Source: Patescibacteria group bacterium (GTDB taxonomy: Bacteria; Patescibacteriota; UBA1384; XYA2-FULL-43-10). Taken from it: a DNA stretch of 32,000 nucleotides. The position numbers and the translations under genes are program-made. Below the pieces are notes generated by a model. The model worked only from the letters and a program-made list of their open reading frames with translations. It ran no database searches and had not been told where the DNA came from. The stretch spans positions 1 to 32,000 of the forward strand of contig JBAYVT010000003.1 in assembly GCA_041674405.1 (NCBI GenBank), given 5' to 3'. Shown in pieces: positions 1 through 27,710 of the stretch (positions are counted from its first letter, which is position 1; each line of letters opens with the position of its first letter).

Positions 1-37
1 CGGCGGCGGGGGCTTATAGAAAGGAGTAGTGTAGAAA

Positions 38-838
38 GTGCTAGACTTCGTGCTAGAGTTGCTCACCTGTCTTCTCCTCGCCGGTTGCACCATCTTCGGC
101 ATTCTGTACCTGCGCCGATGGTGGAAAGACGGCGAGAGCGATCGCAGGCATGAAATGACAAAGGTCGCCCTCGGTCGGGGACACGTTGACCACGAGGCTG
201 GTCGAGATATGCGGGCCCACGCTCGTGCGAATCTCGGCTTCGCCGGCGTGCCTGATTCCGAAGCGGGAGACGTGCTACTTGGCGTCCCCTCCCTCAATCC
301 GGAGAAAGAAGGTTCGTGGGAGACAAATCAGCCAATCCTCACTACCTCGCGGATCATGCAACTGACCGAGGATGGCCCTGTTGACCTCGAGCTTCTGGAG
401 CTGATGGCCAATGGATACGTCCTCCTGGTCAAGGGCTCCAAGGTGTTCCTGCTCAAGCGCTACAACCTGACTGCCCGTCAGGAGCGCTACCTGCAGGAGC
501 AACGCCAGGACGCGGCGGACAGACACGATGGGGTTATTGAGGATTTCCTCGGCAAGCCATGGACCATCAAGATGGCGACCGGGGACACCTTCACTCCCGA
601 CGTGGGCCCTGCCCACAGCACCATCCAGGTGCTTTCGACTCATCCGCGGCTTGGTGAGGAAGGATTCCTGACCGTGCTGCCGCCCGAAGTGATGGACGGC
701 GAGCCGCACAACTACTACGACCTGGAAGCAGTGGCTGACGACGGAAACGTGCTCGTCGCCTTCTACTGCAAGGGCGGCTGGACCTGTATGATCGGGCGGC
801 TCTTGAAGCCCGAAGAGGTTCAAGAGATCCACAGCTAG
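38..838 (+). CDS. hypothetical protein with a single N-terminal transmembrane helix (GC-rich island 1)
   Basis: 266-aa ORF starting at GTG 38, with AAGGAG at 21-26. The N-terminus is hydrophobic (LDFVLELLTCLLLAGCTIFGILYL followed by RRWW). No family recognised. Codon usage is GC-rich, unlike the backbone. Confidence 0.5.
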   Translation: MLDFVLELLTCLLLAGCTIFGILYLRRWWKDGESDRRHEMTKVALGRGHVDHEAGRDMRAHARANLGFAGVPDSEAGDVLLGVPSLNPEKEGSWETNQPILTTSRIMQLTEDGPVDLELLELMANGYVLLVKGSKVFLLKRYNLTARQERYLQEQRQDAADRHDGVIEDFLGKPWTIKMATGDTFTPDVGPAHSTIQVLSTHPRLGEEGFLTVLPPEVMDGEPHNYYDLEAVADDGNVLVAFYCKGGWTCMIGRLLKPEEVQEIHS

Positions 839-906
839 TCGGACAGGCAAGGGTGTTATGCCCGGCCAAAAGCCGTACAATCAAGACCGCGAGAGGAAGA
901 TCAGAC

Positions 907-1659
907 ATGACAGGAACGGAAGAACATGGCAGCCTCGGGGAAGCCTTTGCGAGCTTCTGCCGGGGGATCGTATCACTCCTCACTACCGGCTCATGGGTAG
1001 TCGAGGGCGCTGCCGACAATGCGCGGAGCACCGAGCTTCTGCGCGAGCGCATCCCGGAGGCGGCTGAGCAAGACGCGCAGCGGACCCTCCAGATCGTGGA
1101 CGAAGGCCTGACCAGCTTCGGACTCCTCAAGCAGAAGCTCGAGCGGGCCAAGCAGCAGAAGACAGACTGGGATAAGCGCGTCGAGACCGGCGTCTCGAAG
1201 TACAAGGCCTGCACCGACCCCGAGCAGAAAGCCAAGCTTGGCGATCTGGTCAAGCAGGCGCTTACCGAGCGCAAGAAGACCGAGACCCTCGTGAGCCAGC
1301 TACAGGCCGCCGTTGACGAGGCGGGTCCGGACGCCGAGGCTGCCCTCAAGGCCGCCGAGCAAGCCGGCCTGCGCCGCGAGGCCGCCCTGTCGCAGGTCGA
1401 GGTCCTGAGCATTCAGGATGCGTCGGCCAAAGCCAGGCACAACCTGGCGAGAGCCGCTCAGGGCGACGGCAACTCCCAGGCCACTGAGCTCCTCGCGGAG
1501 CTCGGGCGCAAGGTGCAGAGGCACCAGGCCGAGGCTTGTGCCGGCCAGCAGATCGCCGACGCGCTCCCGAAGAGCGCTGAGCAGATCGGGGCGGAACTCG
1601 ACGATGTGACGGCACATGACGACATCGAGGCCGAGTTCGCCGAACTGGTGGGGAACTAA
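907..1659 (+). CDS. PspA/IM30-family (phage shock protein A-like) coiled-coil protein
   Basis: Long heptad-like A/E/K/Q-rich sequence. The C-terminal pattern (...ELLAELGRKVQRHQAEA...DDIEAEFAELVG) resembles the PspA C-terminus (...FERxExKV...EA...LExxFAxL). ATG 907 is preceded by GAGAGGAAGA at 891-900; the ORF-track start at 853 is a GTG without an SD. Confidence 0.6.
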   Translation: MTGTEEHGSLGEAFASFCRGIVSLLTTGSWVVEGAADNARSTELLRERIPEAAEQDAQRTLQIVDEGLTSFGLLKQKLERAKQQKTDWDKRVETGVSKYKACTDPEQKAKLGDLVKQALTERKKTETLVSQLQAAVDEAGPDAEAALKAAEQAGLRREAALSQVEVLSIQDASAKARHNLARAAQGDGNSQATELLAELGRKVQRHQAEACAGQQIADALPKSAEQIGAELDDVTAHDDIEAEFAELVGN

Positions 1660-1686
1660 TCCGTGGTACAGCCGCGGATAAGCGTC

Positions 1687-1718
1687 GAAGAGGCCGCTGC
1701 AGTTGCAGCGGCCTCTTC
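1687..1718 (+). terminator. GC-rich perfect hairpin ending island 1
   Basis: GAAGAGGCCGCTGC (1687-1700), loop AGTT, GCAGCGGCCTCTTC (1705-1718), giving a 14-bp perfect stem 28 nt after the stop at 1659. The following T-run is weak. Composition turns AT-rich directly after it. Confidence 0.6.
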
Positions 1719-1871
1719 TCATTGTCTAGGCAGGGAATCAGTTTCTACTGTTAGACTAATAATAATGACTACCGTATTATCAAGATTTTGCATCTGGTTT
1801 TTGTGCCTCTGGTAAAGGACGATAGTTTCAACTTTACTTTTTGCCATTTTAAGAGTAACTTTTGAAGTGCA

Positions 1872-3460: not shown

Positions 3461-3607
3461 TTCACCTAAACCTTTCTTAGAGGCATGGTGAAAAAATCGT
3501 GTCTAGAGACCAGAGATGGTCATCTGTTCGGTACTCTAGACACGTCTATGCTCGAAAGGGCGTAGGGCAAGCCCGCAAGGTCTTGTCGCCGACAGGTGGC
3601 CATTTTT
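3461..3607 (+). ncRNA. candidate structured RNA or 5' leader upstream of the small Cys-rich ORF
   Basis: Locally GC-rich within an AT-rich spacer. Helix TTCACC(3461-66)/GGTGAA(3487-92). An 11-bp perfect inverted repeat CGTGTCTAGAG(3498-3508)/CTCTAGACACG(3534-3544). GNRA-capped hairpins at 3548-3563 (loop GAAA) and around 3572-3581 (loop GCAA). Loop segment 3518-3528 is complementary (with G-U pairs) to 3591-3601, which is followed by CATTTTTG. No known family recognised. Confidence 0.3.
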
Positions 3608-3631: not shown

Positions 3632-3898
3632 ATGGGTGAAAAAGCTGAGGCAACAAAAGTGATTTGTGCTGATTGTGGAAAGATGGTTATTGAAATGAAT
3701 AATTCTGATGAATGTCTAAATCACTTTTGTCATACAAAAAATATTATTTATCCAGAAGGATATAGCAGCACAAGCACACCGGATTTCTTGGAATGTGATT
3801 GTGGAAATATTATTGGAATCCTTGCAGAAGATAAAAACAAAATTCCCGCATATTATTTGATCGCAGGTAGATATAAATTAGAAGTAAAAAGATATTAA
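3632..3898 (+). CDS. small Cys-rich (zinc-ribbon-like) hypothetical protein, 88 aa
   Basis: ATG 3632 lies 6 nt after GGAGGGA (3619-3625); the ORF-track GTG at 3596 lacks an SD. Cysteine pairs CADCG, C..HFCH and CDCG. No family recognised. Confidence 0.6.
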   Translation: MGEKAEATKVICADCGKMVIEMNNSDECLNHFCHTKNIIYPEGYSSTSTPDFLECDCGNIIGILAEDKNKIPAYYLIAGRYKLEVKRY

Positions 3899-3911: not shown

Positions 3912-4000
3912 AAAACAAACTGATCAATTTATCTAGCCGCTTGGGCTAACTCGCAAACGTAACACTTTCTTCGCGACCACGGAAGAATTGTTACGTTTTT
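3912..4000 (+). repeat. 89-nt dispersed element, copy 1 (small hairpin plus large terminator-like hairpin)
   Basis: Identical to 9253-9341 except A3979 versus G9320. TAGCC-GCTTG-GGCTA hairpin at 3934-3948. AAACGTAAC(3955-63)...GGAAGAATT GTTACGTTT(3981-98) imperfect hairpin followed by a T-run. Confidence 0.95.
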
Positions 4001-4108
4001 ATTTTGACTTTTATTGGAATCATATGCTAGTTTTGACTTGCGCCTTTTGGCGACAACAGATAAGGAGGGATTGCCCTGGCAAAAACAGACAAATATGCCG
4101 AGGACGGG

Positions 4109-5227
4109 GTGGACGTAGAACAAGGCGATCTGTTTAGCGCGTACGCAGGCAAGGTCTGCCATGCAAGCTTTCAGAACTCGCCTCTCATCGAGGTGTTGGA
4201 TCTCTCTGCGGGATACTTCCGCGGAGTTAGGTCCTTCCGGCCAGTCGGACTGCCGGCTGATTGGTCACTCGACTTCACTTCCGACGGCAACGGCACCAAG
4301 CCGATTGTTTCGGATGCGGCAATGAAGCACGAAGGGGCTGCCCATGACCTGGTAGCGATGTGCTGCGGCGACATCACCAGAAACGGCGGCTGTCCCGTAG
4401 TCTTCAACAACCAACTCGATGTCGCCACGCTTGGCAAGGAGGGCGACTCCATCAACATGGTATTCCGCAGCATGATCACAGAACTCGGCGAAGTAGCTAC
4501 GGCCATGAGGATCGTGTTGTTCCGTGGCGAAACCGCCGAACTCGGACCCTGTGTCGGAACAGACAACCCCAACCCGTTTGCTGCGTTCAACTGGTGTGGT
4601 GCGGCGCTTGGTGCCTATCTGCCACAACTGATGATCACTGGCAACAACGTGGCAGAGGGAGACCTGATCATGGCACTTCGGGAAAACGGATTCCGTGCCA
4701 ATGGCATCAGCTCGGTCCGAAAGGCATTTGCCATGCGGTACGGAACCGAATGGTTCGACCATCCCGTGGTGATCGACCAGGGATATCTTCAGCAAGCGGC
4801 AGAGCCGTCCGTGCTCTACGATCCGTTCTTCACTCACCTGAACGGGTGGTGGACCGGAAGCTTCGAACCCCTCATTCAGGTGAAGAAGATCATCCATGTC
4901 ACCGGAGGAGCCTTCGGAGGCAAGCTGGGCGACGACTTCCTGTTCCGTAGGGGAATGTCGGCTGACCTTCCCGATCTCTTCGACCCACCTGAGATCATGC
5001 TCCTCTGCAAGGAGTGGCGCGGCTCGTCAAGCACAGAGGCATACAAGGCCTGGAACGGCGGGCAGGGTGCACTGGCAATCATTAGCCCGTCCGACGCAGA
5101 GGACTTCCTGTCCAACGCCCAGGACTTCGGCCATGATGCCAAGATCTGTGGAGAGGTGACGAGGAGAGACACGCCGTCTATCACGATCACATCCAAGTTC
5201 GACGGAGAGGTCATCACCTATTCCTAA
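4109..5227 (+). CDS. purM: PurM-like protein (phosphoribosylformylglycinamidine cyclo-ligase / AIR synthase family), divergent, GC-rich island 2
   Basis: SDGNGTK, HDLVAMCCGD, RGETAELG, ENGFRANGISSVRK, HVTGGAFG and WNGGQGALAI are collinear with E. coli PurM motifs (TDGVGTK, IDLVAMCVND, GGETAEMPG, SSGPHSNGYSLVRK, HLTGGGF, FNCGVGM). Coordinates follow the ORF-track GTG. The conserved N-terminal YxxxGVD motif lies upstream, so the true start is probably CTG 4076 or ATT 4070, after AAGGAGG at 4062-4068. Confidence 0.8.
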   Translation: MDVEQGDLFSAYAGKVCHASFQNSPLIEVLDLSAGYFRGVRSFRPVGLPADWSLDFTSDGNGTKPIVSDAAMKHEGAAHDLVAMCCGDITRNGGCPVVFNNQLDVATLGKEGDSINMVFRSMITELGEVATAMRIVLFRGETAELGPCVGTDNPNPFAAFNWCGAALGAYLPQLMITGNNVAEGDLIMALRENGFRANGISSVRKAFAMRYGTEWFDHPVVIDQGYLQQAAEPSVLYDPFFTHLNGWWTGSFEPLIQVKKIIHVTGGAFGGKLGDDFLFRRGMSADLPDLFDPPEIMLLCKEWRGSSSTEAYKAWNGGQGALAIISPSDAEDFLSNAQDFGHDAKICGEVTRRDTPSITITSKFDGEVITYS

Positions 5228-5233
5228 CACCGC

Positions 5234-5280
5234 TTTGCTTCTGCCCAGAAAGGAGGCGAAACACCTCGGGTAGAAGCAAA
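5234..5280 (+). terminator. extended GC-rich hairpin 3' of the purM-like gene
   Basis: TTTGCTTCT(5234-42)/AGAAGCAAA(5272-80) 9-bp stem, extended by GCCC/GGGT and by an inner GAGG/CCTC helix. No clear T-run. Confidence 0.45.
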
Positions 5281-5295
5281 TACCATAGCAATTAA

Positions 5296-5316
5296 AGAAA
5301 TTAATTATTAATTTCT
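5296..5316. repeat. AT-rich perfect palindrome
   Basis: AGAAATTAAT T ATTAATTTCT (10-bp arms), nested in a weaker ATACCATA/TGTGGTAT outer pairing at 5280-5323. Confidence 0.6.
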
Positions 5317-5331
5317 GTGGTATATGTTAGC

Positions 5332-5377
5332 AAACGTAACAATTCTTCCGCGGTCGTGGAAGAATTGTTACGTTTTT
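5332..5377 (-). repeat. third copy of the hairpin module of the 89-nt element (perfect stem, inverted loop)
   Basis: AAACGTAACAATTCTTCC(5332-49), loop GCGGTCGT, GGAAGAATTGTTACGTTT(5358-75), then TT. The loop is the reverse complement (7/8) of the copy-2 loop GCGACCGC, so I call the orientation inverted. Confidence 0.85.
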
Positions 5378-5471
5378 ACTGGTTGATGTTCTCTGTAAGG
5401 AATATTGTTGTGTTTTACCTTTTATGTTATTATTGTTGTGCTAATATTTTTGAAAATAAATAAGGAGGGGG

Positions 5472-8400
5472 ATGAAAGCATTAATTAAATTATCTGCCGC
5501 TATAGCGGCATTTTTGTTAATCCTTTTTGCACAGAGTTGCTCCGCATCAGATTGGCCAACACAAAATTCAAACAATCAAAACAACCCGCTCGCTTTTGAC
5601 ACGTTTCGTGAAGGAAATAATTCATATTCTATTAATCTTGGCACAATAACCACCGGCCCAACCAATGTAGTTGCAAATGGAATTATTTATTCCACAGCAG
5701 AGCCGGCCAGTAAAACCCTTTCAGCATACAGACTCTCGGATGGGCAAATAATTTGGCAAAAATCTTACAACACTTCAATATATAATATTGTGTATGATTC
5801 CAGAAACATTTATTTTGCTTCTGACGAGTTTTATTCTCTAGACGCAGAGACTGGCGATCAAAATTGGAAATCAAGTATTTGTGGCACAAAAATATGTAAA
5901 GTTCTCAGAATTGATGGAAATAATATATATGGTTATCGCACCACATCTATTCCCTCAGCTCAAATAATACTTTTGGACAAAATCAGTAGCAATTTAATTG
6001 CACAAAATACCACTGCATCCACCACAATGAATATCGACGTGGAAATTGACAATTCTTCTCTGTATTTGATGTCGCAATATTCCGGTGGCGCGATTACCAA
6101 TGTTTATAAGTTAAACAAATCAGATCTAACGCTCGAAAAACAATTGGATAATTGCCCTGTTCGCGCTTATGGAGGACTGCTTGATATAGAATACAGCAAA
6201 TTATATTTATCTGCTGATACGGTGTTGTGCACCTATGATTTAAACACCCTCACCTTAAACAAGAATTTATCAGCTGGAACTTTTGGTGCTTTTGTCAAAT
6301 ACGGAAATAATATATACGGAAAAGGATCTTACAGCGTCAGTTCCTTTGGGGCAAACGAGACCACACCATTGCCTAAATTTTTCCAAACTATCGGTATGAC
6401 TCCCTCATCCAATGCATTGGTAGTAAACGGAGTCTTATATTACGGCACAAACACCGGCAAAATTTGGGGTTACAATTTAGAAACCGGCCAACAAAAAACA
6501 TGGGATATAGAGGTGGGTTCAGCAATTAACAGCCTCAAATATTCCGATGGCCACTTTATAATTACAAGCCGCGTAAGCAACTTATACAAATTGTTTGTAG
6601 TTGATCTAAATAATTTATCACTCAGATTAACAAATTTTACTCTTAATATTAGCAGTCCCTATAATTTATCCGGCACGAATCAATACCTTGGCCAAATTCA
6701 TTGCCATTATATTCCCGATTTTGCCATATGGAATAAAATCTGGAACAGGGAGCCATCACCGGAATTTACTGCGAATGCTTACAAAGAAAAGGGTTATGAC
6801 TTTGTGGCTCTCACGGAGCATAACCAAGTTGTATCGATGCCAGTGACAGATGGAATTCTGCAGATTCAAAATTCAGAAGAGTCAACGCAAGGACTCGGGA
6901 AACACCACCTGCTAGCGCTAGGAATTAATGATCCAATTAATGATGAGTCGTCTGACCAAGACAGAATTAATCAGATAAATTCCCAGAACGGAATTGCAAT
7001 TCTGGCCCACCCCGACTCATGGGTGTACGGCGCTCTGTCTGCAACGATTGAAAAACTTTCGGGATTGAAATATTTGGAAACATATAGCCATGGTACAAAA
7101 CAATACATGCCCGATGCATTTGCTTTTGATGATTTTGACTACCTCTTATCGAAACGCAACAACAAGTTTCTCACCGCTGGAGATGATTATACACCAGGAG
7201 ATGGCTTTATCGATGGTGGGGCAATAGTCGTATTTGCCCAAAACAACAGTCAGTTGGAAATTATGAATAATATAAGAAATGGAAATTTTTATGCTCTTCA
7301 GGGCTCAGGCGCCCCGCGGATAAATAATATTTCCGCAGATAGCATATCCATGTCCATAAGTGTGAATGAGCCATCAACCATTACATTCATCGGTAAAAAT
7401 GGAAACAAATTAAAAAGCGAAAAAAATGCATCAAGCTCAATATATAGTTTTCAAGGGGATGAAATATATGTTCGAGCTGAGATAAAATCTGATAAAACCG
7501 GCAAATATGCATGGTCCCAGCCAATATATATTTCAGAAGATCAGCAAAGTATAACAATTGGAAGTGGATTACATACTACAACTCTCGAGAATATGATTTT
7601 AAACTCTAATTCAAATAATGCGATTTTTGCTAAAACCGTTGCAACCCAAGACACACCTTCAGCAACTCCGCCAACAGGTTATTTGAGTCCTATCTATCAG
7701 TTTACGACCGAGGGTCAGGTAAACCCTGGAACAATTCTTTCGATTAGTTACAAACATGAAAATCTACCTGTGAATCCCAAAAAATTATCAATTTATTCTT
7801 TTGACGAATTATCCAATTCTTGGAATCCAATCCCGAGTGTAGTGGACGAAGAAAATATGAGTGTCGCAGCAAATCTTGAACACTTTTCCTATTATACCCT
7901 TGGGGCAGATATCCCGGACGATATTGAACCCCCCTCTGTTAGCCTTGTCGAGCCAGTTGATCTTTCCAACATTTCCGGTGAAACATTACTGGTTGCAAAC
8001 GCGAGTGATAATGAGGCAGTGGTATCTGTAAAGTTTTATCTTGATCAAAAACTAATTGACACCGATCTTGACAGCAGAAACGGCTGGACCGCAAATCTAG
8101 ATTCAACCAATACTATTTCCGGAATTCACAAACTTACCATAACCGCAGAAGACCTGGCTGGTAACTTATCGAGCGAAAACTATGATGTTACTATCGCAAG
8201 CCACATCGCAGCTCCCACAATCTCCTTAAATTCTCCATCAGAGAATCAAAGACTTTTTGTGGATTCAGATATTCAGGGTAATTATTTGAGCAGCATCACA
8301 GTTGAACAAATTGGAATTTATCTGGACAATGTTTTTGTTAAAAATGCTAGCGTTGATAAAGAAAAATCAACCTTCCTTGAAAAAATGAATTGGTCACAAT

Positions 8401-8984
8401 TCAAAGAAGGTACCCATACGCTAGGTATAGTTTTGTCTGATACTGAAGGCAACACAACTTCATCTTCGATAAATATCGAGATTGCCCAAAATGTAACTGC
8501 TACAATTATTTCTCCAGCAAATCAAAACTATCTTTCGAACCAAAAAATTGATCTTGTGGTGAATGTTCAGCCAACAAGCGAAAATGTCGTAATTCTAATC
8601 GACGGTAAACAAGTTCCTAACAATACAAAAATTGATTTAATCGGTTACCATCTCGGCAGACATACCATCGAAGTTCAGTTCGGTGATAAAATTATCGCCT
8701 CATCGGAATTTCAAATCGTAACAAATTATGACGACACAAGAAGTATTGTGGCTCGATTATCAAGAGAAAGGCACATTAAAAATGCAGGGATTGCACATGC
8801 GATAATTTCAAAATTGAAAACCGCTCAAATGATGGGCAAACGAAAGAACCCTATCCCCGAGAAAACAGCATTAATAAAGCTTGCATTATATATATTCAGG
8901 CAATCAATCGGGTCCAATGCAAAAATCGATGGCTACGCAAGGAATATTTTATTAGAACATATTAGTTATTTGGTAAAAGATTGA
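5472..8984 (+). CDS. large secreted multidomain protein: signal peptide, PQQ/BamB-like beta-propeller repeats, PHP-type metal phosphoesterase domain, Ig-like domains, helical C-terminal domain
   Basis: AAGGAGGGGG directly upstream of the ATG. N-terminal signal MKALIKLSAAIAAFLLILFAQSCSA (possible lipobox-like Cys). Repeats of the type DGQIIWQK, ETGDQNWK and ETGQQKTWD. PHP-like HCH...ALTEHN...ILAHPD...GDDY. Repeated roughly 90-aa beta-rich modules (e.g. PPSVSLVEP...VKFYLD...LTITAEDLAGN). C-terminal HIKNAGIAHAIISKLKTAQ... helical segment, FIMAH-like from memory. Confidence 0.85.
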   Translation: MKALIKLSAAIAAFLLILFAQSCSASDWPTQNSNNQNNPLAFDTFREGNNSYSINLGTITTGPTNVVANGIIYSTAEPASKTLSAYRLSDGQIIWQKSYNTSIYNIVYDSRNIYFASDEFYSLDAETGDQNWKSSICGTKICKVLRIDGNNIYGYRTTSIPSAQIILLDKISSNLIAQNTTASTTMNIDVEIDNSSLYLMSQYSGGAITNVYKLNKSDLTLEKQLDNCPVRAYGGLLDIEYSKLYLSADTVLCTYDLNTLTLNKNLSAGTFGAFVKYGNNIYGKGSYSVSSFGANETTPLPKFFQTIGMTPSSNALVVNGVLYYGTNTGKIWGYNLETGQQKTWDIEVGSAINSLKYSDGHFIITSRVSNLYKLFVVDLNNLSLRLTNFTLNISSPYNLSGTNQYLGQIHCHYIPDFAIWNKIWNREPSPEFTANAYKEKGYDFVALTEHNQVVSMPVTDGILQIQNSEESTQGLGKHHLLALGINDPINDESSDQDRINQINSQNGIAILAHPDSWVYGALSATIEKLSGLKYLETYSHGTKQYMPDAFAFDDFDYLLSKRNNKFLTAGDDYTPGDGFIDGGAIVVFAQNNSQLEIMNNIRNGNFYALQGSGAPRINNISADSISMSISVNEPSTITFIGKNGNKLKSEKNASSSIYSFQGDEIYVRAEIKSDKTGKYAWSQPIYISEDQQSITIGSGLHTTTLENMILNSNSNNAIFAKTVATQDTPSATPPTGYLSPIYQFTTEGQVNPGTILSISYKHENLPVNPKKLSIYSFDELSNSWNPIPSVVDEENMSVAANLEHFSYYTLGADIPDDIEPPSVSLVEPVDLSNISGETLLVANASDNEAVVSVKFYLDQKLIDTDLDSRNGWTANLDSTNTISGIHKLTITAEDLAGNLSSENYDVTIASHIAAPTISLNSPSENQRLFVDSDIQGNYLSSITVEQIGIYLDNVFVKNASVDKEKSTFLEKMNWSQFKEGTHTLGIVLSDTEGNTTSSSINIEIAQNVTATIISPANQNYLSNQKIDLVVNVQPTSENVVILIDGKQVPNNTKIDLIGYHLGRHTIEVQFGDKIIASSEFQIVTNYDDTRSIVARLSRERHIKNAGIAHAIISKLKTAQMMGKRKNPIPEKTALIKLALYIFRQSIGSNAKIDGYARNILLEHISYLVKD

Positions 8985-8987
8985 ACA

Positions 8988-9218
8988 TCACAAAGCCACA
9001 AATATACCGAATAATCCAACCGCTAGAATTACAATCGACAATATCATCCCAATCACACTCACCCAGAGAGGATATTTTTTGCGATATGTAATTAAAAAAA
9101 TTATAGGGTAGATAATCAACAATACTAATAATGCTCTATATCCCCAAATTAGAAAAAATAACGAGATAACAAAAAGCAACAAGGCTATAGTTCCGCTAAT
9201 TGATGTTTTATTTTTCAT
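8988..9218 (-). CDS. small membrane protein (2-3 predicted TM helices)
   Basis: Hydrophobic ORF. I prefer the start MKNKTSISG at 9218 because AAGGAGGGAA sits directly upstream (reverse complement of 9219-9228). The ORF-track start at 9245 has no SD. Confidence 0.55.
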   Translation of the reverse strand: MKNKTSISGTIALLLFVISLFFLIWGYRALLVLLIIYPIIFLITYRKKYPLWVSVIGMILSIVILAVGLFGIFVAL

Positions 9219-9252
9219 TTCCCTCCTTAATTTTATTTTCAACATTCATTAT

Positions 9253-9341
9253 AAAACAAACTGATCAATTTATCTAGCCGCTTGGGCTAACTCGCAAACG
9301 TAACACTTTCTTCGCGACCGCGGAAGAATTGTTACGTTTTT
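9253..9341 (+). repeat. 89-nt dispersed element, copy 2
   Basis: Same 89 nt as 3912-4000, in the same orientation, with 1 mismatch. It lies between the miaB-like stop (9365) and the small membrane ORF. Confidence 0.95.
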
Positions 9342-9364
9342 CTTCTTGATATGAATTCTAGAAA

Positions 9365-10510
9365 TTATTTTTTATTTACTAAGTCGTTCAGGATTCGCCA
9401 GCGACGCTGTTTTTCGCTCCAGAGAACAGGATCACCGAGCTTGTAAGCTGCAGTGCCGGAGCGGGGTGAATACTTGTTGACGTAGGCAAGAGAAAAATTA
9501 ACTTTTTTGAAAACTTCTATAGTTTCTTCGAAATCCTTTTCTGTTTCCCCCGGAAATCCAACTATTACATCTGTTGTGATCTTGATATCCGAATTTGCTT
9601 TTCGAATTTTGTCGATAATTTTCAAATATTGTGATTTTGTATAGGGGCGATTCATTGCTTTCAAAATTTTATCCGATCCGGATTGGAGCGGAAGGTGAAT
9701 CTCTTTTTTGACTTTTGGCAATATCGCAACTGCTTCAATAATATCACCTGCCATGTCCTTTGGGTGGTTCGACATAAAAGAAATAATGAAATTGCCCGGG
9801 AGATCATTTAAATCTTCCAGTAGTATGGCAAAATCAGATTTACTTTTAAGTTTTGAGTTGAGATCCCTCGACTCCGCTCGGGATGACTCCGCTGCGTCGC
9901 TTTTGATCCCGAAGGGACCCCCTTGGGGCTTTGTCTTTTGATTTATTTTGTATGAATTTACGTTTTGCCCCAAAAGCATGATTTCTGACTCACCACGATG
10001 GATTAGCGCCTTTACATCTAGTATGACATCTTCATACGGCCTCGACTTTTCCCGTCCGCGAGTATAAGGTACAGCACAATATGAACAAAAATTATTGCAC
10101 CCAATCATAATAGGCACATAATTGCTAGTATTGCCTGCCCCGAGCGCAGTCGAAGGGTTGAATTTTTGGATTGTTAAATTGCTGGATGGGCCTACATCTT
10201 TAGGCAATAATTTAGCAAGAGATTCAAAACTAGATGAATCGAATAGCTTGATGCCCCTACTCGTAAATTTCTTTTTGTCGCTATCAAGAATGCAGCCACC
10301 GACCAGAATTTTCTTATCCTTCCAATTTTTTATCCGGCCAAATATGCGGTCGATTGCAGTTTGCCGTACAGAGCAGGCGAGGATAATGACTATTTCTGCG
10401 TCTGCCGGTTTTTTAGTTTCCAAAAAATCAAGCTGGTCGAGAAAATATTTAACTCTCGCGCCATCCCATTCATTGTATTGGCATCCAATTATCCAAAGAT
10501 AATATTTCAT
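9365..10510 (-). CDS. miaB: MiaB-like radical-SAM methylthiotransferase (no evident C-terminal TRAM domain; internal GC-rich insertion)
   Basis: N-terminal IIGCQYNEWDG (MTTase domain), the radical-SAM CNNFCSYCAVPYTRGRE motif, and LLGQNVNSY. It ends about 60 aa earlier than the canonical MiaB I remember. Confidence 0.8.
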   Translation of the reverse strand: MKYYLWIIGCQYNEWDGARVKYFLDQLDFLETKKPADAEIVIILACSVRQTAIDRIFGRIKNWKDKKILVGGCILDSDKKKFTSRGIKLFDSSSFESLAKLLPKDVGPSSNLTIQKFNPSTALGAGNTSNYVPIMIGCNNFCSYCAVPYTRGREKSRPYEDVILDVKALIHRGESEIMLLGQNVNSYKINQKTKPQGGPFGIKSDAAESSRAESRDLNSKLKSKSDFAILLEDLNDLPGNFIISFMSNHPKDMAGDIIEAVAILPKVKKEIHLPLQSGSDKILKAMNRPYTKSQYLKIIDKIRKANSDIKITTDVIVGFPGETEKDFEETIEVFKKVNFSLAYVNKYSPRSGTAAYKLGDPVLWSEKQRRWRILNDLVNKK

Positions 10511-10564: not shown

Positions 10565-11263
10565 TTATTCTTCTTTTTTCTCTTCAGCCGGGGTTTCTTC
10601 AGAACCTTCAGCAGTCTCAGCTTCGCCAGCTTCTTCACCTTCGGCTTTTTCGCCTTCAACTTCGACAGCTTCCACATTTTCGACAACTTCTTCGTTCAGA
10701 GCCTCAAGCTCTTCCTCTGATCTCGGTGGCTGGACAATAACAACTACCTCTTCCGGATCATCAAGGATTTCGATCTTATCCGAAACTCGCAAGTCTCCCA
10801 CTTTGATATTTTGTTCAAAGTCGGTCAAGACCGAAACATCAACATCGATGTGGTCCACAAGATCGGATGGCAAACACTCTACTTCGACAGCGTCTTTGTT
10901 CATGATCATGCTGCCTTCCTGGTTGATAACAAGATCGGTTTCTCCGATGATTTCAAGAGGAATTTCAGTTTTAATCTTTTCTTTAAGATTAACCTTGTAA
11001 AAATCAATGTGTTCGATTTTCTCAGTCACCGGATTTGTTTGAATTTCATGAATAAGGACTTTGATCTTCTGGTCTCCAACGCCAAGATCGACAAGGTTTG
11101 ACGATCCCGCGTCACGGAAAAGCCTGTTAAATGCAGTTTCGTCTACAGAAATATTGATAGGATCGAAACCTTTTCCATAAATTATTGCAGGAATTTTTCC
11201 TGCGTTTCTTATTTTTTTTGCGTTCTCTTCGCGCTTTTCAGCACTAAAGGTAAAATCTGTCAT
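10565..11263 (-). CDS. rplY: 50S ribosomal protein L25 / general stress protein Ctc, with acidic C-terminal tail
   Basis: REENAKKIRNAGKIPAIIYGKG and the L25/Ctc two-domain pattern. ATG 11263 follows GGGAG; the ORF-track TTG at 11275 overlaps that SD. Confidence 0.9.
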   Translation of the reverse strand: MTDFTFSAEKREENAKKIRNAGKIPAIIYGKGFDPINISVDETAFNRLFRDAGSSNLVDLGVGDQKIKVLIHEIQTNPVTEKIEHIDFYKVNLKEKIKTEIPLEIIGETDLVINQEGSMIMNKDAVEVECLPSDLVDHIDVDVSVLTDFEQNIKVGDLRVSDKIEILDDPEEVVVIVQPPRSEEELEALNEEVVENVEAVEVEGEKAEGEEAGEAETAEGSEETPAEEKKEE

Positions 11264-15449: not shown

Positions 15450-16784
15450 TTATTCTGAAAATGTCAATTCCTCTCTGTATCCATTTTTAAAATCATCATA
15501 ACTCATTTCATTCTTACCGGCCGGTTTGACACGATCGATAACTAAATGCTTTTCTTTATCCAGATGGGCAGCCGTTATCTGAATTCTTTTACCCTTAATA
15601 TCAGTATATACTCCTGGCCAAGGATAAAATGCTCGAATCATACGATCAACCTCAACCCCACTGGTTTCCGGTACCACTTCCCCGTCTAATTTTTTAAGAA
15701 TTTTGGTGTAAGTCGCTTTTTTTTCGTGCTGAATCACTGGTTTTATGTCACCAGTTATATAATATGGCAAGGCTGTTAATAAAAGTGAAGCACCCAGCTC
15801 AGAAAGATAATCGTGCAATATCTGATAATTTTCACTTCCCGAAAGCTTAATGCTCGTCTGGGCAATAATCGGGCCGCTATCTACGCCTTCATCAATTTTA
15901 ATTATCGATACCCCAATTTTGTGGTCACCATTCAAAATTGCGCTTTGGATCGGAGTTGTCCCTCTGTATTTCGGAAGTAATGAAGGATGAATGTTGAGTG
16001 TTTTGTACTTGGGAATTGTAAATATTTTTTTTGGGATAATAAAGCCAAAATCTGTCACGACACCCAAATCCGGCTTAAGTGATTTTATCTGTTTGAAAGC
16101 CTTGTCGTCTTTGAGTGTTTTGACCTCAATTACAGGGATTTTTAATTTATTTGCAAGTAGTTTTATATTGTTCGCATCAACTTTTTTACCTCGTGCTAGT
16201 TTTTCCGAGCTACCCGTTATCACAGCCTTGACTTTGTATTGTGGATCGCGATGCAAACTTTCGAGAGTATGGAGACCAAAATTTCCAGTTCCAAAAAATA
16301 CCACCGATACTTCCTTAATATGATCGACAAATAGTGTTGAATTTAAGTGATCAATTTCATGCTGTATAACTCTGCCCTGGATGTTATCAGCGCTAATCTC
16401 AATCGGTTTTCCATATCTATCCTGCCCAGTGACAGTAATTTTCTGAGGTCTCTTTATGACCAGTTCCATGCCCGGAAAAGAGAGGCACCCCTCCACCATT
16501 TTACATTGTTCGCTTGAAGCTTTTTTAATTTTGGGATTGCACAAAATTGTTAATGGAAATTTTTTGTAACCTTCTTCTTCGTCTTCTTCATCTGTTTGAT
16601 ATTCACAAACCAAAATTTTTTTTGAATGTCCAACCTGTGGAGCAGCCAGGCCAATTCCATTGTGTTCTCGCATCGTATCCACCATATTGTCAATCAATGT
16701 CTGCAATTCCATATCAAAAGACTCAACCTTTTCAGTGGCCTCTCGTAATACCGGTTCTCCGTCTTTAAATACTTTTAACTTCAT
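15450..16784 (-). CDS. def-fmt: bifunctional fusion: peptide deformylase (N-terminal) and methionyl-tRNA formyltransferase (C-terminal)
   Basis: Def motifs GIGLAAPQVG (aa 43-52), EGCLSFPG (98-105) and HEIDHL (142-147). These are followed directly, from about aa 159, by Fmt motifs VVFFGTGNFG, NIHPSLLPKYRGTTPIQ and IDEGVDSGPII. One uninterrupted 444-aa frame. Confidence 0.9.
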   Translation of the reverse strand: MKLKVFKDGEPVLREATEKVESFDMELQTLIDNMVDTMREHNGIGLAAPQVGHSKKILVCEYQTDEEDEEEGYKKFPLTILCNPKIKKASSEQCKMVEGCLSFPGMELVIKRPQKITVTGQDRYGKPIEISADNIQGRVIQHEIDHLNSTLFVDHIKEVSVVFFGTGNFGLHTLESLHRDPQYKVKAVITGSSEKLARGKKVDANNIKLLANKLKIPVIEVKTLKDDKAFKQIKSLKPDLGVVTDFGFIIPKKIFTIPKYKTLNIHPSLLPKYRGTTPIQSAILNGDHKIGVSIIKIDEGVDSGPIIAQTSIKLSGSENYQILHDYLSELGASLLLTALPYYITGDIKPVIQHEKKATYTKILKKLDGEVVPETSGVEVDRMIRAFYPWPGVYTDIKGKRIQITAAHLDKEKHLVIDRVKPAGKNEMSYDDFKNGYREELTFSE

Positions 16785-26942: not shown

Positions 26943-27710
26943 TCAATCTTCAATATGCTTACCAACAATTAACCTCAATTTTTCATCCGTACTTTCGATA
27001 TATTGTGGAGTTTTTGATATTACTGACCCTCCCGATGTTATAAATACCGACTTATTGGTAAAAATTCTCATCGATCTTGCGCGAAAGGTGCTAATATTTT
27101 TTTCAAGTATTTTATTCAATGTAAACAAACCTGATATTTTTTCCAGAATACCATTTTCATGTTGAATATCAGATTGGATTGTTACGTCCAAATATTCCGG
27201 TTTCGGTTTTTTCACATTGGGTTCAATATTTGAAATCGTCATTTTGCTGACTTTTGCCTGAACTAGATAACCCTTGAATTCGATCGTAATTTCCGTGGAT
27301 TTCTTAAGTTCGAGCTCGGCAGATGTAATAAAATGCCTTCTGTTTCCAGTCATGCCAAGATTAATCTCTTTGATTCTGCGAAATCTTAGAACATCGATAG
27401 CATCTCTTGGATTTCTAACCCCGATAACATTTTCGATTTCGGCCGATGCCTCGAGTGGAATTATTCCCATGGCTTCTGGTTTACCAACCATTTTGTCAGC
27501 TACTTGATTTATAATATCATCAGAACCAACCGCGACGATTGTTGAATATTTTTTTCGCAGTCCAATCTCAGCAAGCTCTGAAGCTGATTGCACACCAGTT
27601 ACATAAGTGAATTCACCAGAAATACCAATATGGGCAAGCTGGTCCTTGATTGCTTCAACCTGAGTTTTCTTCTTACATTTTTTCGGATCAAAAATATAGT
27701 AGTACATCAA
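26943..27710 (-). CDS. diacylglycerol/lipid kinase-family (DAGK_cat, YegS-like) protein with a degenerate GGDGT motif
   Basis: Family layout: IFDPKK..., IVAVGSDDIINQVADKM (at the GGDGT position), GIIPLEASAEIENVIG (at the PlGTgNdfa position). Confidence 0.65.
   Translation of the reverse strand: MMYYYIFDPKKCKKKTQVEAIKDQLAHIGISGEFTYVTGVQSASELAEIGLRKKYSTIVAVGSDDIINQVADKMVGKPEAMGIIPLEASAEIENVIGVRNPRDAIDVLRFRRIKEINLGMTGNRRHFITSAELELKKSTEITIEFKGYLVQAKVSKMTISNIEPNVKKPKPEYLDVTIQSDIQHENGILEKISGLFTLNKILEKNISTFRARSMRIFTNKSVFITSGGSVISKTPQYIESTDEKLRLIVGKHIED

Follow-up and report, generated by a model that had tools for sequence, protein, structure and literature searches.

We analyzed the first 32 kb (32,000 nucleotides; hereafter, the window) of a 152-kb contig (JBAYVT010000003.1) from a metagenome-assembled genome of a Patescibacteria group bacterium, a member of the candidate phyla radiation (CPR); the contig itself was examined up to position 39226 (L144). 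The subject is a family of 44-bp palindromes, two of which (c1 and c3) form part of an 89-nt direct repeat, together with its association with two genes, one encoding a protein resembling the repressor PaaX and the other encoding a giant surface protein. The host genome has a GC content of ~39%. To the left of the first repeat copy (repeat 1), RsmH, QueH, a LOOT RNA, and the Cys-rich open reading frame (ORF) ORF88 follow one another in this order. The interval between c1 and c2 holds one divergent PurM-type gene, and that between c2 and c3 holds a 1170-aa gene and a convergent 76-aa membrane ORF, ORF76. The right flank of c3 is a MiaB/RimO-family gene, beyond which core genes extend in a long run. 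An earlier note on this DNA had divided the region between queH and the miaB-like gene into two cassette-like modules, A (the purM-like gene) and B (the 1170-aa gene and ORF76). Both modules do lie between these two genes, although ORF88 and the LOOT RNA also intervene between queH and repeat 1. The features are as follows (GC3, GC content at third codon positions):

3632–3898, forward strand: ORF88, a small Cys-rich protein (CxxC...CxC), left flank of repeat 1, with the LOOT RNA upstream
3912–3954, forward strand: 43-nt 5′ part of the repeat, copy 1, between the ORF88 stop and c1; identical to 9253–9295
3955–3998, forward strand: palindrome c1, with an imperfect left arm, followed by TTTTT; 67.5 bits (model R2)
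4109–5227, forward strand: divergent PurM-type (AIR-synthase-related) gene, that is, module A; 57.7% GC, GC3 70%; CPR-wide family
5332–5375, forward strand: palindrome c2, near-perfect, with a 20-pair stem; counterpart of h2 (L148), h3 (L149), and p1 (L150)
5472–8984, forward strand: 1170-aa Ig-like/beta-propeller surface protein; its gene regularly accompanies the palindromes and the gene for the PaaX-like protein in L148, L149, and L150
8988–9218, reverse strand: ORF76, a small membrane protein with two transmembrane helices, converging on the 1170-aa gene; the gene pair is kept in four genomes
9253–9295, forward strand: copy 2 of the 43-nt part, here at its native place upstream of ORF76 (minus strand)
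9296–9339, forward strand: palindrome c3; 71.3 bits (model R2)
9365–10510, reverse strand: MiaB/RimO-family methylthiotransferase, the right flank, marking the end of a conserved syntenic core block
Contig 32235–32278: palindrome c6, 16 nt past the UvrA stop, with outer arms changed compensatorily (GTAGG/CCTAC)
Contig 37255–37298: palindrome c4, with inverted arms; its imperfect left arm is shared with c1 and c3; abuts the stop codon of the PaaX-like gene
Contig 37893–37936: palindrome c5, perfect, TGTAACAATTTTATCACGATCGTGATAAAATTGTTACA; overlaps the start codon of the PaaX-like gene

Positions 3912–4003 and 9253–9344 are direct repeats with 98% identity, and the inner 89 nt (3912–4000 and 9253–9341) match at 88 of 89 positions. 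As the earlier note had read, A3979 versus G9320 is the sole mismatch within these 89 nt. The third hairpin copy that it had placed at 5332–5375 (c2) is also present, with a stem of 20 pairs and a 4-nt loop instead of the perfect 18 bp it had claimed. Its loop comparison, a reverse complement at 7 of 8 positions, was correct. However, the GC...TTTTT flanks of c2 match those of c1 and c3 in the direct orientation, so that the proposed inversion need not be assumed. The centers of the palindromes are GATC in c5 and c6, GACC in c1 and c3, and GGTC in c2 and c4. Since GACC and GGTC are each one transition away from GATC, and since c4, despite its inverted arms, has its GACC on the strand that also carries that of c3, a reversed loop is no proof that c2 was inverted.

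Four occurrences of the 18-nt arm GGAAGAATTGTTACGTTT were counted in the window versus 0.07 expected, and the 35-nt 5′ part of the repeat occurs twice versus 0 expected. RNA folds of the three elements in the window gave −25.6, −26.9, and −29.6 kcal/mol, with z-scores of −4.3, −3.9, and −6.3. The 43-nt part contains a small hairpin of its own (TAGCC-GCTTG-GGCTA) and showed no significant similarity elsewhere in the 39 kb of contig or in relatives. A JGI contig (3300037067; L135) crosses repeat 3, including both flanks, and Logan unitigs of another sample end at window positions 3941, 3949, and ~9290 and retain the A/G variant. Because L135 spans repeat 3 and the unitig breaks are those predicted at k=31 for a two-copy repeat, the arrangement is not an assembly artifact.

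Six members of the palindrome family (c1–c6) were found in the 39 kb of contig, all of them intergenic. A covariance model built from nine members recovered exactly these six copies in the contig and no others, and the palindrome arms are the most repeated nontrivial 10–12-mers in the 39 kb. The 23-kb syntenic core block (9.4–32.2 kb) contained zero members. Five of the six copies sit 0–104 nt past a stop codon: c1 lies 56 nt past that of ORF88 and 110 nt ahead of the purM-like start, c2 lies 104 nt past the purM-like stop and 96 nt ahead of the start of the 1170-aa gene, and c3 lies 25 nt past the stop of the MiaB-like gene (minus strand) and precedes the ORF76 start by 77 nt. Folds of family members reach −20 to −30 kcal/mol. 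Read in the direction of the gene that precedes them, c1, c2, c4, and c6 show a stem-loop followed by a U-tract 3′ of a gene, as in an intrinsic terminator; for c3, there is just UUU toward MiaB but UUUUU on the plus strand.

Searches of wider collections were largely uninformative. A pattern scan of genome contigs with AAACGTAAC-N20-32-GTTACGTTT gave at least 120 hairpins; among the matches listed, none had the inner stem (32–45 bits, model R1). A scan of metagenome contigs with a 20-mer gave seven unrelated matches and missed L135, though this contig carries the repeat, so absence from the metagenome collection means little. In viral contigs, the 18-mer arm, the 23-mer 5′ part, the 24-mer conserved center, and a protein search with the PaaX-like sequence gave chance matches or none. 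BLAST of the 89-mer against phages and plasmids gave no match, and Rfam at E ≤ 10 contained no family for the hairpins.

The PaaX-like gene lies ~28 kb further along the contig and encodes 198 aa, with c5 over its start codon and c4 at its stop codon. Its product matches PF20803, the central Cas2-like domain of PaaX, with E = 5.5e-21 (5.5e-21 to 2.8e-15 across three genomes). Compared with E. coli PaaX (PDB 8A39), a weak alignment extends across the winged helix and the central domain (E = 0.029). As a separate observation, the start codon abuts the palindrome without a Shine–Dalgarno (SD) sequence in three genomes (here, contig 37893–37936, equivalent to L144 1291–1334), and an extended −10-like motif, TGATAAAAT, lies within the proximal arm. 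This suggests that the PaaX-like transcript is leaderless and autoregulated.

Relatives of the 1170-aa protein are few, with just 11 others among 5.8 billion proteins, and three of their contigs were examined. The PaaX-like proteins of L148, L149, and L150 are 70%, 73%, and 28% identical to that of this genome. L148, the closest relative available, shows 82% identity in ORF100, 70% in the PaaX-like protein, and 58% in MiaB; nearest relatives are ~60% identical in MiaB, and its best homologue reaches 62%. The order in L148 is MiaB, palindrome h1, the PaaX-like gene (minus strand), palindrome h2, a 1179-aa gene, and a small convergent ORF. Palindrome h1 lies 8 nt past the PaaX-like stop and, like c3, just after MiaB, and h2 touches the PaaX-like ATG and is 86 nt upstream of the big gene. 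In L149, palindrome h3 touches the ATG of the PaaX-like gene, and a 1173-aa gene begins 117 nt beyond. In the more distant L150, palindrome p1 is located 130 nt upstream of the big gene, followed by the small convergent ORF and p2; p2 lies 54 nt upstream of the PaaX-like start, and p3 lies 19 nt past its stop. The ATCTAGC..TAA motif of the 43-nt part recurs beside p2.

Thus, in all four genomes a palindrome sits on the PaaX-like start codon or at most 54 nt upstream of it, and a site is found 86–130 nt upstream of the big-protein gene. The PaaX-like gene is flanked at both ends by family members in three genomes. In contrast, no family match was obtained in the 88 kb of five further CPR loci devoid of a PaaX-like gene. 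In position, c2 corresponds to h2, h3, and p1, and c3 to h1 (after MiaB) and to p2 (upstream of the small ORF). Compared with L148, the block formed by the big gene and the small ORF has the reverse orientation relative to MiaB, and a displacement of ~28 kb separates the PaaX-like gene, along with the two palindromes that flank it, from its place there. All relatives show a synteny breakpoint beyond MiaB. Module B had been taken for part of an accessory stretch; this is not borne out, because it adjoins MiaB and the PaaX-like gene in L148, the trio being kept in L149 and L150. The association of sites, big gene, and PaaX-like gene in relatives indicates that module B is a native and conserved partner, not an insertion.

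The consensus of the sites is a 44-bp dyad, TGT-N3-ATTTT/ATTCTT-N-CGATCG-N-AAAAT/AAGAAT-N3-ACA, and the skeleton common to the four genomes is TGT-N3-5-ATTTT-N3-4-CGATCG-N3-4-AAAAT-N3-5-ACA. The outer inverted hexamers of 6 bp are 26 bp apart (28 bp in L150). They read TGTAAC-N26-GTTACA (c5) and CGTAAC-N26-GTTACG (c1–c4) here, and TGTGGT-N26-ACCACA, TGTAGC-N26-TCTACA, and TGTCCT-N28-AGGACA in L148, L149, and L150, respectively. The hexamers are constant inside a genome ([C/T]GTAAC here) and differ between genomes. These changes are symmetric: eight pairs are altered on both sides (18 cells), and none of 500 shuffles reached the observed value. However, symmetry of this kind is expected for both a hairpin and a protein-binding site and does not by itself decide between them. 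The CGATCG center and the inner arms retain their sequence, the central 15 nt being identical between c3 and L148 h1, and the asymmetric left arm is conserved as well. In this genome, the elements are followed by T-runs; in L150 such runs are lacking, and in L148 they are weak, so that termination cannot be the conserved function.

Two other identities for the motif were discarded. An uptake-signal reading (resembling the DNA uptake or uptake signal sequences DUS/USS) was rejected because the arm motif is almost confined to the palindromes: ACGTAAC occurs solely in them, and GTTACGT and a 10-mer occur once outside (27178–27187). The GC is missing from c4–c6, which led us to reject GCAAACG...CGTTT as a PurR box.

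In E. coli, the PaaX operator is TGATTC-N27-GAATCA, and PaaX represses its own promoter (PMC9493321). The layout of two 6-bp inverted repeats ~27 bp apart is also found in the family described here, with a hexamer sequence unlike that of E. coli. We therefore favor, with about even confidence, the reading that the palindromes are operators of the PaaX-like regulator that double as terminators in this genome. Five observations argue for it: the regulator gene is adjacent in four of four genomes, a site lies on its start codon, the spacing is of the PaaX type, the center is conserved, and relatives lack T-runs. Like PaaX of E. coli, a PaaX-like dimer would bind the two outer hexamers, at a distance of approximately three helical turns from each other. 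Its own gene would be under its control, and probably those nearby as well, including the genes of the 1170-aa surface protein and ORF76. In this genome, A and T runs extend the sites, whose transcripts form stable hairpins with U-tracts, so that most sites are probably also intrinsic, partly bidirectional terminators. Since five of the six sites follow stop codons at 0–104 nt, a terminator role here is very probable.

The likeness to the PaaX repressor of the phenylacetate catabolon in E. coli and Pseudomonas extends to three features: an N-terminal winged helix with a central Cas2-like domain, the operator geometry (6-N26/28-6 here versus 6-N27-6), and a site at the regulator's own promoter, comparable to the autorepressed Px promoter. 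In contrast to the known system, the 26-bp spacer is here palindromic itself with a conserved CGATCG center, and sites also occur at the 3′ end of the regulator gene. Furthermore, the host is a CPR bacterium, and in place of paa genes, the neighborhood contains genes for a giant surface protein and a small membrane protein.

Several points weigh against the operator reading. The PaaX link rests on gene adjacency and site geometry, and the 198-aa protein lacks the C-terminal, CoA-ligand-binding domain of PaaX (316 aa). All 44 bp are palindromic, which goes beyond the needs of a 6-N27-6 operator and is typical of hairpins and of elements like the repetitive extragenic palindromes (REPs). The sites lie 22–54 nt upstream of the conserved −35 box of the big gene, not over its promoter, and L148 h1 lies between two convergent genes with no obvious operator target. 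The imperfect left arm that c1, c3, and c4 have in common suggests copy-and-paste spread. In addition, copy number and contexts rest on 39 kb of this genome, and the proposed mechanism does not fully explain the 43 nt that were duplicated along with the palindrome.

To our knowledge, gene regulation in CPR bacteria is almost unexplored. Giant surface proteins of these bacteria are prime candidates for host attachment, and a compact regulator with a recognizable, conserved 44-bp site beside such a gene is a directly testable regulator–operator pair. What lies here is a conserved, previously undescribed module of regulator, site, and surface protein in CPR, and not a new kind of mobile element.

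Alternatively, the palindromes could be plain intrinsic, partly bidirectional terminators whose sequence was locally copied or homogenized and which have no dedicated binding protein. The stable stems followed by T-runs and the positions of c1, c2, c4, and c6 past stop codons and of c3 between transcription units are as expected of such terminators, and the upstream A-tracts and downstream T-tracts would permit termination in both directions. However, plain terminators would not be expected to conserve their sequence, and not structure alone, at a protein identity of 58–73%, with the center and inner arms kept while the outer arms change symmetrically. The relatives' copies have no usable T-runs, those of L150 having none at all and those of L148 being weak as terminators. 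Moreover, divergent promoter regions contain c5, h2, h3, and p2, at or next to the start codon of the PaaX-like gene. We consider this explanation unlikely.

A further possibility is that the palindromes are selfish elements like REPs and REPINs (REP doublets forming hairpins), with the PaaX-like gene, which encodes a winged helix-turn-helix/Cas2-like protein, as their partner; copying and recombination would then shuffle gene blocks, and the 89-nt repeat would be a footprint of this. As in REP/REPIN systems with their REP-associated tyrosine transposases (RAYTs), several short, imperfect, extragenic palindromes, often past stop codons, are dispersed around a putative cognate gene, which they flank at both ends in three genomes, and each genome has its own variant. 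The imperfect left arm is shared by copies ~28–33 kb apart, and the inverted big-gene block and the displaced PaaX-like gene are consistent with shuffling. Against this, PaaX-family proteins are known as repressors, not transposases, and no HUH/Y1 (IS200/IS605-like) transposase domain or gene was found within 39 kb, the flanked gene belonging to the repressor family PF20803. The copy number appears low (six in 39 kb), the corresponding positions are kept across genomes, which argues for stability, and no matches were obtained in phage, plasmid, or viral collections. This reading seems rather improbable to us. The earlier note had offered, as its second option, a dispersed terminator family resembling REPs or miniature inverted-repeat transposable elements (MITEs). 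The dispersed, terminator-like hairpin family holds; a free REP or MITE does not, because the family is tied to the PaaX-like and big surface-protein genes in four genomes.

In a stronger form of the same idea, the palindromes and the winged helix-turn-helix/Cas2-like protein would constitute a recombination-active REP/RAYT-like system of this CPR clade that shuffles cassettes without an integrase. The protein would bind and perhaps cut the palindromes, and exchange between them would have moved and inverted blocks and captured the GC-rich purM-like gene. We regard this version as slightly more doubtful still. If the palindromes do recombine, this would help explain changes in gene order in small genomes with few mobile elements.

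The last alternative was the first option of the earlier note, namely that the 89-nt repeats are attL/attR sites or that the hairpins are integron attC-like boundaries used by a site-specific recombinase. An attC site has the architecture R″(RYYYAAC)-L″...L′-R′(GTTRRRY), with an unpaired spacer, extrahelical bases, and a length of ~55–141 bp. The direct repeats (88/89) flank 5.25 kb as attL and attR would, removal of this block leaves a tidy convergent pair of ORF88 and MiaB with one hairpin, and module A has a foreign base composition. The imperfect palindromes separate gene modules, as in attC arrays and in clusters of attC sites lacking an integron integrase (CALINs), with AAC...GTT at the hairpin base and an asymmetric bulge in the left arm. 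However, Pfam annotation of all genes in the window and in the contig to 39226 revealed no recombinase; that the window lacks an integrase had already been noted, and the same holds for IntI and for any other recombinase over the 39 kb. The hairpins, at 44 nt, are shorter than attC sites, c2 and c5 are near-perfect or perfect palindromes without an extrahelical base, and the R boxes ACGTAAC and GTTACGT match at 6 of 7 positions each. The genes of module B are convergent with promoters of their own, not co-oriented promoterless cassettes, and the module is native. Furthermore, c2 and c3 have same-position counterparts in relatives, and the best homologues of the cargo are 69% and 55% identical, with no recent spread visible. 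The option is not supported and is highly improbable. As a caution, hairpin repeats that bound apparent modules near a gene of foreign composition may be conserved sites of regulation or termination even though they mimic integron or att boundaries.

Apart from the operator reading, the 89-nt repeat is a separate and recent event in which one site was copied together with 43 nt of the ORF76 upstream region, and it is the only remaining pointer to a recent recombination event. The 43-nt part is native at c3. There, a promoter-like site for ORF76 extends from 9276 to 9248 on the minus strand, with a −35-like TAGATA inside the 43-nt part and the −10 box (9248–9253, TATAAT on the minus strand) abutting its left edge; the −10 sequence ATTATA and an SD sequence are also conserved 5′ of the small ORF in L148 and L149. 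The copy at 3912 is thus probably the derived one. It introduces a new junction 13 nt past the ORF88 stop, shortly before the purM-like gene with its foreign composition. On the right, the duplication ends where the palindrome and its T-run end, and the left junction shows only microhomology. We suggest that c3 and the 43 nt were copied to the ORF88/purM-like junction, probably when the GC-rich purM-like gene came to this place by rearrangement or acquisition, the palindrome acting as a homologous anchor. A plausible route is palindrome-anchored recombination while the purM-like block was inserted or rearranged, homology-facilitated illegitimate recombination being one example. Campbell-type integration at the 44-bp palindrome, in its simple form, would leave the additional 43 nt unduplicated.

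The purM-like gene belongs to a CPR-wide family, and its homologue in L143 lies beside purN, purL, and purQ, so that it is probably the real PurM of these organisms. Its closest homologue (L141 8001–9146) is 69% identical, which leaves no recent cassette spread visible, and has 54.7% GC in a contig of 40.6% GC. The family seems to stay GC-rich in AT-rich CPR hosts. Right after the stop codon of the gene, two successive hairpins were observed (window ~5236–5327; L141 9155–9250; L143 8397–8490), which are conserved in the three genomes with compensatory changes, the first having an SD-like AAAGGAGGYGAAA in its loop. They matched no Rfam family and may constitute an undescribed 3′ untranslated region motif. 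In L141, an unrelated palindrome family of 28 nt, CACTTCTCTACTCTAGAGTAGAGAAGTG, has three copies without a T-run within 1.6 kb (9445–9480, 9785–9815, and 11035–11065), around a Trp-repressor-like gene and beside the purM-like homologue.

The purM-like gene makes up one of two GC-rich islands (window 1–1720 and 4040–5283). The first comprises an ORF at 38–838 and a PspA-like ORF at 853–1659 with 60–65% GC and GC3 of 74–80%, and has its own GC-rich terminator at 1687–1718. A candidate second GC-rich hairpin repeat (1687 and 36995) was rejected as a chance 13-mer inside a coding region.

With regard to the 1170-aa gene, its promoter (−35 and −10) is conserved 3′ of the palindrome. The gap at which it converges with the ORF for two transmembrane helices is 3–33 nt in the four genomes (window 8984–8988; L148 8745–8758; L149 4224–4258; L150 13552–13556), and no terminator lies between. 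This conserved convergence suggests overlapping antisense transcription or a functional pair.

At the left flank, ORF88 had no homologue at related loci. Directly 5′ of it, a full-length LOOT RNA (Rfam RF03000) was detected at 3463–3587 on the forward strand, scoring 70.7 bits against a gathering score of 46.4. Within the core genes to the right, an ORF of 444 aa on the reverse strand (15450–16784) encodes a fusion of peptide deformylase and methionyl-tRNA formyltransferase, and this fusion is kept in L138 and L139.

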